Shown here piece after piece: positions 29,348 through 41,362 of a DNA stretch of 64,000 bases. The translations under genes and the position numbers were made by a program. Source of the stretch: Schmidtea nova (taxonomy: Eukaryota); assembly GCA_044892505.1 (NCBI GenBank), contig CM097882.1, positions 182,900,001-182,964,000 of the forward strand, read 5' to 3'. The notes below the pieces were generated by a model that was given only the letters and a program-made list of their open reading frames with translations, made no database searches and was not told the origin of the DNA. Numbering within the stretch: position 1 is the stretch's first letter; every line of letters starts with the position of its first letter.

Positions 29348-32300
29348 TTGAGAAAAGGAGAAAAGAGTGTCATAATAAAACCAGCAGAGAAGAAAGTCGA
29401 CAGAAAAATCAACAAAGAGGACCCAAATAGTGTGGTAATAAAACCAGCAGAAAAGAATAAAGCTACCAAGAATAATAATCAGAAAGGCCTAAAAGGAAGT
29501 AAAGCGAGGAAGATAATAATACAAAAATCGATTATCGAAAACGATAAACTATCAGTAACAAGCAACAGTTCAAGCAACAAAGAAAATCAAGCAGAACCCG
29601 AGAGAAACCCAATAAGTGAAATAGAAGTCGACAAAACCAACAACGATTATATAGAAGAAATAGAAGACGAAGTAGAACAAGAAACAGAAAGTGACGATAC
29701 CGATAACGATAGTAAAGCATCAGATAACGAATCAGCAAAAGAAACTGAGATCGACCGAAATTCGAGTGACGAACATAACAGTGAACTAGAAACAATAGGA
29801 AACGAAAGTAAAATAACTACAGACAGCGGAATCGAAATGAGCGAACCAAGAGAAGAGATAAAAGACAAATTTTCCGGAGAACCGTTTAATGGAGATGCGA
29901 GTAAATTGGAAACTTTCTTAAAAGAATTTGGCATATTCGTGGAAGTATGCAAGTGGAAACCAGAAACAACTGTAAGTAGAATTCAGCTATATTTAAAAGA
30001 TAGCGCATTAGATCTATATTTGGAAGCAAAAAACGGAATTAATCCACCTACAAGTTGGTCAGCGATAAAGGACTTTTTCCAACAAACCTTCGGAATAAAT
30101 AAAGTATTGAATGAGGCATTCACGGAATTCTCAATGAGGAAACAAAAGATAAATGAATCGAATGCGGTATATGCAAGCGAATTGAAAAAGTTAGCAAAGT
30201 TGATCTTTAATCAAGACAGCCCAATAAATGAGGAGTTAATGGCAGCTATCTTTGTGGGAGGATTAAGAAGACCCGACATAAGAGCGCAAGTTGGATGTCA
30301 AGGGTGTAAAACCATCGACCAAGCACTAGAAACAGCTAATAGATTTGAACTACATATGATAGGAAATGACGGTAGAATCTATTTAGCTATGGATACAGCA
30401 CAAAACGAACAAGAAGTGAACCTGAATAACCACATTCCAAATTCACAACAATTAAACCGACCACCACCTCAGCGAAGGAATGAAGGGAGTAAAGTATCAA
30501 ATTACGGAAACCAAAACAATTACAACCTCCAAGGACCAACGAAACAATGCAAAACATGTGGGAAATTGGGACATTGGCAACAAGAATGTTATCAGAACTT
30601 GAATTGTGGAAAATGTGGAGTAAAAGGGCATTCAGAGAGCAGATGTTACACAATAACCTGTTTTAACTGTGGACGACCCGGAAACCTATCAAGAAATTGC
30701 GGACAAAGAAGCAATCAACGAGGAAACTGGCAGAATACTGGAAACCGACAAAACTATGGAAACCAACCAACTGGTGGAAACCGACAGAATTATGGAAATC
30801 AGCCAAATAATGGAAATCGATCGGAATACGGAAACCAACCAAATAGTAATAATAATAACCAAAATAAAAATACCACTAAAGAGATACATTTAATGCAAGA
30901 GGTTCAAAGATTGACAGAGCTGATAAACAATACAACCAGAGGAAATCCGCAAACAGGTCAACAACAAATCAACATGATGAGAAAAATAGAAAGCGAAAAC
31001 GAACGATTGAATCGGGAAAGCCAAGCACGACATGCTCAGGAATGGGCAAGAATACAAAGAGAAGAGGAACAAAAACAGCAAGAAAGAGAACGACAACCTC
31101 TAAGAATCAATATGATGAGAGCAACCAACCAAACAAATACCCACGAGAAAGAGACTGTGCCAGAAATAAATCCAACAAACCTGAATCCAACCAATAACGA
31201 AGGTCGAAAAGAAATAGTACCAGGAAGCGAAGAAGCAGAGAAAGAAACAGAGAAGGAAGTAGAAAAAGAAGGGAACCAAGAAGAGAAAAGGAAACTCGGG
31301 AAAAGAGGAATGATGGTAATTTTGCCAAACAAGCACGTGTTTCGATTCCAATATAATATAAAGGAAGAAGTAGGAATATTGTTCAACAAAGTGAATGAAA
31401 TGGCTCCAGGAGTAACGAAACTGCCCAGAGAAGCATTCCTAAAAATAGAAGGTGCACCAGAAGTAAAATTGAAACTAACGGATACATGGGAAAACATGGG
31501 AGTAGTAGAGACAAAAAGAAATGTGATGGTAATCAAGGAAATAGAACCAGAAGGAATTCCATCGCCAGTGCGTCACGAAACACGAATCAGTCGAATATTT
31601 AAAGGGAAAATGATACGAAGACGGTTGGGAGAAATAGACGAGTTAGAACGAAAAATGAGAAAGGTCGAAGTAGTAGACGACAAGAGTGAATCAACACAAA
31701 AAGCTATTAAAAGTGAAACAAGACCAACGGAAAATACACCAAGTGAAATCAACCAAATAAAACACATTAACATGTTGAGAGGCCAGGCAAAGAATTTTTC
31801 AGATGACGAAGAGGATAGTGACGTCAGTAGTCTAGCCGGAGATATGCTAAACGAACCGGAAATTGAAGACAAAAAGATAGAAGTAGTAAAGACACCAGAA
31901 ACTGTTCAAGTAAAAGAGGACGAGATCCAGAAATTATTAGATAACGCGCTAGAAGTAATATATAATGAAGAATTCATCGACAAGAAACACTATCGGAAAT
32001 TCATGAGAGCGATATTACAAATGAACTATAAAGAGTGGTTACCAGGCCGGGAAGTAGAAACACTAAGCCAATACGTAGGAAAATTATTAAAAGAACCACT
32101 CCATGAATATATAATACTAATACAGATAAAAACATGTCTACCAAGGATTTGGATCAAAACTCCACTCACGGAGGATATTTATCAATGGGTAGAGAATAGA
32201 TTAGGGAGTTCATATAAAAACAAATTCCTCTATTCACAGAATGGACTAGTGAAGAAAAGGACGCATTTGATAGAAACAGGCATATGGCCAGGAGAGGTGA

Positions 32301-39409: not shown

Positions 39410-41362
39410 ATGGATGTATTCAAAGACAATGCGGAGTTAAAAGAACACATGAGGAAATACCAACATCGATACACAATAGAAAAAGGATGGTTATTAATAC
39501 AGGATGGAGAAAAACGATTAATGTGTCTGCCAGGTAATAGACGAAAAGAGATAATAACTCAATACCACGACGGAAAGTTGGGAGGACACATGTCCGATAA
39601 GAAAACATTAGATCGCATGAGACAAAAATATTATTGGCCAACAATGGACGAGGACGTAAAGGAATGGATAAAGAACTGTTTAACTTGTGCCACAAGAAAG
39701 GATAGTGGGAAGAAATGGAAAAATCCCTTAAAACCCATGCCAATACCAGCGGAACCAATGACTACCATTGCGATGGATGTGATAGGACCATTGCCAGAAA
39801 GTTTAAACGGGAATCAATATATATTGGTAATAACGGATTATTTGACGAAATTCCCTGAGGCATTTGCGATGCCGGATCAAAAAGCAAAGACCGTAGCAAG
39901 AATTTTAGTAGAGGAAATATGTTGTCGATACGGAACCCCGAAACAAATACTAACAGATCAAGGAACAAATTTTATGAGCGAAATATTAGATGAAGTAACA
40001 AATTACTTCAGAATAGCCAAATTACGAACGTCACCCTATCATCCGCAAACCAATGGACAAACGGAAAGATTTAACGGCACATTGATTCGAATGTTATCCA
40101 ATTATGTAAGCAAACACCAAACAGATTGGGATGAGTACATAAAGCTGTGTCTAATGGCATACCGAATGTCGATACACGCAGCAACAAAATTGAGTCCATT
40201 TCAATTAATGTATGGAAGGGAATGCAATATGCCAATAGATCTTGAATATCAACCACCTTTGTCTCAATATATGGAGGAAGATGATTACGTCACCAAATTC
40301 AAAGAACGAATGCAAGAGATATGGAAGACAGCAGAACTGAACATAAAGTTTTATCAAGAAAGTTACAAGGACCTACACGATCAAAAGAAAAACGTTAAAA
40401 CAAATGATCTTAAACCCGGAGATTGGGTAATGATAGAAACCCCAGAAATAATACCAGGAACCGTTAAAAAACTACAAAGACCAGGAAAAGGCCCTTACGA
40501 GGTTATATACAAAAAGGAAAACAATGTGAAGGTAAAACTTGTTAATCGACCATTGATACGACCAATATACGTTAATACATGCAGATGTAAGAAAGTACCT
40601 AAAACAATAACCACAGCGCCAGAAGAACGAATAATAACCAGATCCCAGACAGCCAGAATGAATATGCTCAGAGCAACCAATGAAATTATCGAAGCAGAAA
40701 ACAAGCAACAGAAAAAAAGAAACAAGGAAATCGTACTAAAAGCCAGAGAAATAATGGGAAGATGGCATGTCAGAGACGATATATTAAGGGATATTCAGTC
40801 GATAATTAGTGATTACGCAAAGGGACTACCAACAAAACCTGTTATTTCAGAACTACTAGAAAAAATTCCAGAAATACTTTCACTAGAAGACATAGGAGGA
40901 CAACCAGCATTACATAACGCCATAAAATGGGGAGAAGTAGAGAGAGTAAAAGAATTTCTAAAAATCGCAAAGGAAACAAACCAATACCTTGGTTTTGGGA
41001 ATAGCGAACAAGAAACACCATTAATGGTAGCAGCCATCAACAAATCGGATAAAGCAATAATAGACCTTTTGATAAATGCCAATTTCAACTGGACGGAATG
41101 CGATAGAGAAAACAAAACAGTCTTGAATCACGCAATATGGAGCTCAAATCAGATAATGCTCAAACAAATAATCGAGAAGGCCACTTGGGAAATCGACGAA
41201 CTGATCAAAGGTGATATAATCAAGGAGGCAATAAAAATCGGTAACTGCAAAACAATACGCAAGCTAATAAAATGGAAAAGATCTGAAAATGATACATGGG
41301 TGTTAAATATAAACGAAGTATACAGTGAAGGACAAACGATTTCTATTAAAATTTATTTGTGA
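39410..41362 (+). CDS. Polyprotein part 2: integrase plus ankyrin repeats
   Basis: Same frame as part 1 across one TGA (39377). HDGKLGGH...CLTC, AMDVIGPL, LTDQGTNF, NGQTERFN; then PALHNAIKWG, TPLMVAAIN, TVLNHAIW. Confidence 0.93.
   Translation: MDVFKDNAELKEHMRKYQHRYTIEKGWLLIQDGEKRLMCLPGNRRKEIITQYHDGKLGGHMSDKKTLDRMRQKYYWPTMDEDVKEWIKNCLTCATRKDSGKKWKNPLKPMPIPAEPMTTIAMDVIGPLPESLNGNQYILVITDYLTKFPEAFAMPDQKAKTVARILVEEICCRYGTPKQILTDQGTNFMSEILDEVTNYFRIAKLRTSPYHPQTNGQTERFNGTLIRMLSNYVSKHQTDWDEYIKLCLMAYRMSIHAATKLSPFQLMYGRECNMPIDLEYQPPLSQYMEEDDYVTKFKERMQEIWKTAELNIKFYQESYKDLHDQKKNVKTNDLKPGDWVMIETPEIIPGTVKKLQRPGKGPYEVIYKKENNVKVKLVNRPLIRPIYVNTCRCKKVPKTITTAPEERIITRSQTARMNMLRATNEIIEAENKQQKKRNKEIVLKAREIMGRWHVRDDILRDIQSIISDYAKGLPTKPVISELLEKIPEILSLEDIGGQPALHNAIKWGEVERVKEFLKIAKETNQYLGFGNSEQETPLMVAAINKSDKAIIDLLINANFNWTECDRENKTVLNHAIWSSNQIMLKQIIEKATWEIDELIKGDIIKEAIKIGNCKTIRKLIKWKRSENDTWVLNINEVYSEGQTISIKIYL

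Follow-up and report, generated by a model that had tools for sequence, protein, structure and literature searches.

A giant Gypsy retrotransposon of Schmidtea nova encodes a polyprotein along which a short motif, I-N-M-M-R in its clearest form, recurs at domain borders. We propose, with a probability of about two in three judged from sequence comparison, that these motifs are recognition sites of the element's own retropepsin and that some of them would set free cargo domains. The window analysed is a stretch of 64,000 nucleotides (GenBank assembly GCA_044892505.1, contig CM097882.1, positions 182,900,001 to 182,964,000 of the forward strand). Positions below are those of the window, residue (aa) numbers count from 29315, and all sites, reading frames and polyprotein domains lie on the + strand. 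The element is a Burro-like Gypsy element, of a type already known from planarians, that encodes one giant polyprotein. Related protein records are cited by our P and L numbers.

Each of the ten peptides on which the initial annotation built its proposal occurs once, exactly where it had placed them, all in frame +2. Nine are inside an open reading frame (ORF) of 3354 codons, and MNMLRA (40658) follows in the same frame past its TGA stop. Four copies share a strict core, [IM]NM[ML]R, against 0.0035 expected from 2000 shuffles: INMMR at aa 552 (30968..30982) and aa 598 (31106..31120), INMLR at aa 818 (31766..31780) and MNMLR at aa 3782 (40658..40672). To correct for choosing the pattern after the fact, every five-residue pattern with equal freedom was searched, and the strict core proved the best in the protein. 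When arbitrary residue pairs were allowed, an equally good motif appeared in none of 60 global and one of 30 local shuffles; with chemically similar pairs only, it appeared in none of 860 global and 907 local shuffles (0/1,767). None of 11 other natural Gypsy polyproteins had as strong a motif; the strongest among them was a repeated protease active-site motif.

The looser six members are weak when taken singly. In a leave-one-out ranking over about 4009 positions, with the training sites set aside, the strict four each ranked 1, followed by aa 1281 (rank 2), 3331 (6), 2746 (16), 524 (30), 355 (108) and 2622 (152); the ten sites score 8.3–16.3 on the profile of which they are themselves the training set. 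A pattern loose enough to embrace all ten matches at 21 places, of which 11 are beyond the list of the initial annotation; several of these fall within folded domains, and at least one forms the final strand of a ubiquitin-like fold. Upstream of the ten sites the sequence is more hydrophilic than upstream of these 11 (P 0.011, in a partly circular comparison).

The strict copies could instead be functionless relics of small internal duplications, with the loose ones picked after the fact. The cores are indeed identical at 11–14 of 15 bases, other short tandem repeats exist in the element, and the 11 additional loose matches suit this explanation, which we nevertheless consider quite unlikely. 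The DNA flanking the motif copies, motif codons excluded, does not rise above background similarity in any of the 15 pairs (best pair 46/120, P 0.059); that the motif codons alone were kept points to selection. Moreover, P0087 keeps the motif class, and junctions of distant relatives are enriched in it, as described below. With no two copies alike in their flanks, nothing points to recent copying of a cassette. Copying of a DNA cassette had been considered for 31106 and 40658, and their seeming flank likeness was gone once the motif codons were excluded. Old copying and convergence cannot be told apart for the motif copies.

Known protease specificities suggest where the cuts would fall. The Ty1 protease (PR) cuts VPTIN↓NVHTS, IHLIA↓AVKAV and TARAH↓NVSTS, with mainly Val or Ile at P2 and P2' (PMC6952103); the foamy virus Gag site is RAVN↓TVTQ (PMC3798896), and foamy sites resemble those of yeast retrotransposons (PMC3185560). 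This register, V/I-x↓x-hydrophobic, fits the five sites at ordinary processing borders, and in it the motif would read I-N↓M-M. In the register thus assumed, P2 is I or V in nine of the ten sites and M in one, and P2' is M, L, V or I in nine of the ten.

The five ordinary borders comprise the capsid/nucleocapsid (CA/NC) boundary, the end of NC, both ends of PR and the border between RNase H (RH) and integrase (IN). At the CA/NC border, where Ty3 is known to be cut (PMC6525542), lies IYLA (aa 355, 30377..30388), a weak member; in P0087, VAVL lies no more than one residue from the corresponding place. IHLM (aa 524, 30884..30895) stands past the zinc knuckles and Q/N-rich repeats and corresponds to INVM in P0087. 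PR is bracketed by IAVM (aa 2622, 37178..37189), 27 residues upstream of the catalytic Asp and with VNSI at equal offset in P0084, and by ICAI at its C-terminal border (aa 2746, 37550..37561), aligned with ICML in P0087. These two sites enclose 124 residues, and residue 1 of HIV-1 PR maps to aa 2625, at most one residue from the I-A↓V-M cut (from a weak match, E 0.05, extended without gaps). ICIV (aa 3331, 39305..39316) marks the RH/IN border, with ICAL at equal offset in P0064. The motifs at the PR flanks and at RH/IN are positioned as the initial annotation had described.

The remaining five sites lie outside these borders. INMMR at aa 552 corresponds to INVMR in P0087, adjoining a deletion or splice joint of that record. 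The copy at aa 598 is upstream of a weakly supported first ubiquitin-like domain, and that at aa 818 lies about 50 residues ahead of a helical and ubiquitin-like module. VCMV (aa 1281, 33155..33166) falls in an unstructured stretch 15 residues ahead of a second such module (33200-33673), and MNMLR at aa 3782 separates IN from the ankyrin cargo. The module behind aa 1281 was modelled with a mean pLDDT (predicted local distance difference test score) of 74.6 and has a ubiquitin-like fold (ISG15 E 2e-6); residues 1-6 of the model are below pLDDT 50 and the first helix starts at residue 16. VCMV in a coil ahead of a confidently folded domain favours cleavage. Placement in accessible linkers at domain borders holds for aa 1281, from the model, and for four Pol sites, from Pfam domains.

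The chief competing explanation restricts cutting to the canonical borders (CA/NC, NC end, PR ends, RH/IN and IN end) and takes aa 598, 818 and 1281 for structural or leftover look-alikes, the cargo remaining largely one chain. An aligned counterpart was not found for aa 598 or 818, a low-confidence model (pLDDT 36.5) places aa 524 and 552 in helices, and the border between the last ubiquitin-like and BCL2-like domains is without a site. On the other hand, aa 598 and 818 both rank 1 when left out and have their strict core in common with the post-IN site, and a profile built from internal sites picks out canonical junctions of relatives. We regard uncut cargo as unlikely.

Alternatively, the motifs might be short binding motifs that stay uncut: in the manner of SUMO-interacting strands, for instance, they could attach to ubiquitin-like domains of the element itself or to a protein of the host. 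Ubiquitin-like domains are present in the polyprotein, and acidic runs follow ICIV and INML. However, Arg follows most strict copies, which have no acidic flank; sites at both PR ends and at RH/IN are what cleavage would lead one to expect, and relatives have a copy before protease-like domains. We consider docking very improbable.

Relatives speak to whether the motif class is shared. Searches returned Env-bearing Gypsy polyproteins of about 28–46% identity. No close relative of the Gag-cargo region came from the protein searches, which is weak evidence; a relative was found in none of 56 candidate stretches of viral contigs and in one of 138 from metagenome contigs. In P0087, the closest Gag record, VAVL, INVM, INVM and ICML align with IYLA, IHLM, INMM and ICAI, so that the motif class is kept through substitutions at four places.

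P0001–P0003, P0064, P0066–P0068 and L001 (about 33–46% identity) carry several protease-like domains and Env between Gag and Pol, and several share the helical and ubiquitin-like module. They have similar short motifs before many protease-like domains, at RH/IN and after IN; unlike the present element they have other post-IN cargo, and each has its own motif flavour. Two to four protease-like domains per polyprotein, some after IN, were seen in these records and in P0070 and P0077. In L001, two of them precede a membrane-protein segment situated between Env and the canonical PR.

Enrichment at junctions was measured in 14 hand-picked relatives (not among them are P0002, a near-duplicate, P0087, which was kept apart, and P0069, P0074, P0082, P0083 and short fragments). 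Junction windows, about 4% of the sequence, were set by domain anchors before PR, after RH, after IN and after the last knuckle. A profile built from aa 552, 598, 818 and 1281 placed 11 of its 70 top-five matches in these windows, against 2.9 expected (Poisson P 2e-4), and 5 of 42 when the top three were taken (P 0.03); on 16 generic Gypsy proteins it gave only 4 of 80 (P 0.22). The ten-site profile gave 7 of 70 (P 0.03) and a six-site profile 9 of 70, a count reached by none of 107 column-permuted profiles. In P0064 the two best matches of the whole protein are the RH/IN and post-IN borders. Over 29 PR-like domains, the order of residues at the PR N-terminus gave a score that none of 500 local shuffles attained, and the after-IN anchor reached P 0.002 (n=4, three of which also precede a PR-like domain).

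Several results weigh against the proposal. In the relatives, 59 of the 70 top matches of the four-site profile lie outside junctions, six of the 14 proteins have none inside, and the 14 are not mutually independent. The before-PR anchor (-30..-24) gave 8 of 29 (P 0.03) in a window chosen after seeing the data, and the after-NC (P 0.088, n=8) and after-RH anchors (P 0.25, n=4) were not significant. Relative searches and alignments yielded no close relative for aa 598 or 818. Downstream, I-C-x-x strands of Fn3-like repeats score 10.9 and 9.4, no lower than several of the ten sites. Blind Gibbs sampling of 41 junction windows scored 301, against 283–295 in four shuffled sets, and revealed no clear motif. 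A consensus is generally absent for retroviral proteases (PMC3185560), and prediction from such degenerate patterns is hard (bioRxiv 2024.04.02.587720). The cleavage "code" of the initial annotation was hence an overstatement: because blind discovery across relatives failed and Fn3-like strands score as high as the I-C variants, the motif class is shared yet provides no predictive code. Its assignment of the motifs to the protease fared better, gaining from the Ty1 and foamy register, the positions at ordinary borders and the conservation of the class in relatives; cutting itself stays predicted.

Whether cargo modules arrived with release sites of their own, as the initial annotation had also suggested, receives a mixed answer. 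The post-IN site belongs to the backbone, since the same place is occupied by ISML, IGMM, VGMI or INSL in relatives whose downstream cargo differs: behind it P0001, P0003 and P0064 have a protease-like domain and L001 a membrane protein, in place of ankyrin repeats. P0065 has no clear post-IN site. The dissimilar flanks and the ubiquitin-like/BCL2-like border without a site also weigh against cargo-borne sites. In P0066, on the other side, two near-identical protease-like modules each start with IGML, which indicates that site and module can duplicate together. Both helical and ubiquitin-like modules of the present element have an upstream site; a profile of this module from relatives scores 6.8 and 4.9 bits in the window, against up to 6.0 in shuffles, which lends weak support to a plausible origin of the two by duplication. 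The sites look like backbone features retained or re-evolved under selection with cargo changing behind them, and some modules may have been duplicated along with a site.

A broader reading, which we offer tentatively and consider doubtful as a whole, would take "protease site plus domain" as the unit of growth in this Env-bearing Gypsy lineage. Ubiquitin-like, ankyrin and extra protease-like modules would have become usable by landing behind, or being copied with, an I-N-M-M-like site. Cutting would turn the polyprotein into separate effectors aimed at the host, whose order and amount would depend on the strength of the sites, and the version of the motif would drift family by family together with the protease.

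If the motifs are recognition sites of the retropepsin, processing might proceed as follows. The polyprotein would be threaded into the membrane with Env luminal and both flanks cytosolic. PR would then cut after the second motif residue (I-N↓M-M, I-C↓A-I), accepting I, V or M at P2, a small or polar P1 and hydrophobic residues at P1' and P2'. Predicted products are CA (182 aa), NC (169 aa), two short spacers (28 and 46 aa), a 220-aa piece and a 463-aa helical and ubiquitin-like piece, followed by PR (124 aa), a 585-aa piece with reverse transcriptase (RT) and RH, IN (451 aa) and the ankyrin tail. Signal peptidase would separate Env from a piece in which the last ubiquitin-like module and the BCL2-like domain remain joined.

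The element occupies 23436-52123 and, at 28.7 kb with an internal region of 21.95 kb, is a giant slightly below the size described for Burro. Its long terminal repeats (LTRs; 5', 23436..26802, 3367 bp; 3', 48758..52123, 3366 bp; + strand) are identical at 3348 of 3366 aligned bases, have TG...CA ends and are enclosed by a 4-bp CATG target-site duplication. A Pfam scan gave the order PR-RT-RH-IN between them and, more fully, zinc knuckle, Monjiviricetes-type fusion glycoprotein, retropepsin, RT, RNase H, integrase and ankyrin, with accessory ORFs bearing RING and TRAF/MATH domains. The Gag-cargo-Env-PR-RT-RH frame (29315..39379, frame +2, first Met 29837) ends at a TGA stop (39377-39379), past which the same frame continues with integrase and ankyrin repeats (40910-41179) over 39380..41362 and changes at about 41313-41362; this copy is thus broken by a stop and frame changes. 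The accessory ORFs are an upstream one with a C-terminal RING finger (27155..27619, zf-C3HC4_3 E 9e-12) and a TRAF-like one with zinc fingers and MATH (45338..46759, Pfam), the latter without a good motif match; no BIR domain was found in the 12 ORFs scanned, shorter ORFs being outside the scan. The stretch is present in four sequencing runs, all from one study and with no RNA run among those listed. Variation data covered 40 of 2328 variant places, too few for testing constraint on the cores.

Within the polyprotein, the capsid-like domain (aa 175-356, 29837..30382) matches Gag of relatives and Retrotrans_gag at E 1.4e-4, below the gathering cut-off. In NC, 18-bp tandem repeats (30722-30847) encode Q/N/G-rich repeats, and Asn replaces His in the third zinc knuckle. 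Two or three ubiquitin-like domains lie upstream of the BCL2-like region. A possible first one (~31310-31534) is suggested by a low-confidence model and non-significant matches, and that of the first helical module (~32633-32869) matches modules of P0002, P0082 and P0001 (E 5e-4 to 9e-3 in a 14-sequence set). A single-sequence AlphaFold model of aa 516-1495, on which the borders at aa 524-818 depend, reached the pLDDT of 36.5 given above and is too poor for defining borders; a search of the ESM Atlas gave no usable match for aa 796-1295. The BCL2-like region (34400..34738) is a weak assignment (Bcl-2 E 0.12) that matches P0069, itself Bcl-2 at E 1e-3. Domain borders without a good motif match number two, the last ubiquitin-like/BCL2-like border (best score 1.5) and that between the post-PR domain and RT (best 1.8).

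Directly before Env, a signal-peptide-like stretch ending in A-T-A (34817..34882), similar to one before Env in relatives, falls below the hydropathy cut applied; a signal-peptidase site is predicted at A-T-A, where there is no motif site. Env opens with a hydrophobic stretch immediately behind the BCL2-like domain (both within 34400-34882); speculatively, this stretch may double as a membrane tail anchor of that domain. The Env-like fusion glycoprotein (34883..36664, Monjiviricetes_fusion E 2e-67) lies in frame between Gag cargo and PR and has a C-terminal membrane segment (36557-36610). The aspartic protease, a predicted 124-aa product (37184..37555, RVP E 4e-8), has an intact DTG. Between it and the RT and RNase H (38153..39205, Pfam) no Pfam match was obtained, a dUTPase-like domain having been looked for; P0087 and other records have a conserved domain there.

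Downstream frames (41313-44791) hold more ankyrin-like sequence, a signal-peptide-like stretch, Fn3-like repeats and a terminal membrane segment (44537-44587); this is a second membrane protein, and relatives have a similar tail after IN. A few bases past the 5' LTR lies a sequence like a primer-binding site (26803-26830), which we take to resemble the 3' end of tRNA-Pro, and three tandem arrays (units of about 30, 41 and 55 bp) stand at 28063-28821 between the RING ORF and gag. Elsewhere in the window are the end of a BEL/Pao element (1-2445) and arrays of a 575-bp unit in both orientations adjoining N gaps (6100-12000), either satellite or assembly artefact. Inverted copies, 98% identical, of a 2.3-kb, presumably hAT-like, element with a transposase-like ORF (53575-54729) lie at 16871-19185 and 52795-55109, and a separate ordinary Gypsy element with 29% identity over Pol at 55700-60300.

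Both the element type and the site type are already known. Burro/GYPSM1 are giant Gypsy-like LTR retrotransposons of planarians, above 30 kb and with internal regions of up to 25 kb (PMC6431247). The present element shares with them the giant size, Gag zinc knuckles, ubiquitin/SUMO-like and BCL2-like cargo, a mononegavirus-like Env encoded in frame after Gag and before PR, a further domain separating PR from RT, MATH/TRAF and ankyrin repeats (PMC6431247). It differs from the Burro description in its 28.7 kb, in having MATH/TRAF in a downstream accessory ORF, in its two or three ubiquitin-like domains and in the lack of a BIR match in the ORFs scanned. The likeness is by description, no named Burro sequence being among the relatives returned by protein searches. 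The Burro section of PMC6431247 is silent on polyprotein processing, and the review leaves open how so large a polyprotein functions and whether its domains related to apoptosis and ubiquitin affect the host. A cleavage or processing map of Burro was not found in the open-access literature; the original descriptions and supplements could hold site annotations. In this context, the site map offers named products with predicted ends, open to expression or N-terminal proteomics. If correct, it would add one more to the few retrotransposon proteases of known specificity.

With Ty1 and the foamy Gag p3 site the predicted sites share V or I at P2, a small or polar P1 and a hydrophobic P2'. In contrast to both, Met and Leu dominate P1' and P2', Arg often comes next, and about ten sites are present, several of them between cargo modules; Ty1 is, moreover, a Copia element, unlike this Gypsy element. 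The chemistry would thus be unsurprising: a site of the Ty1 and foamy kind, used more often.

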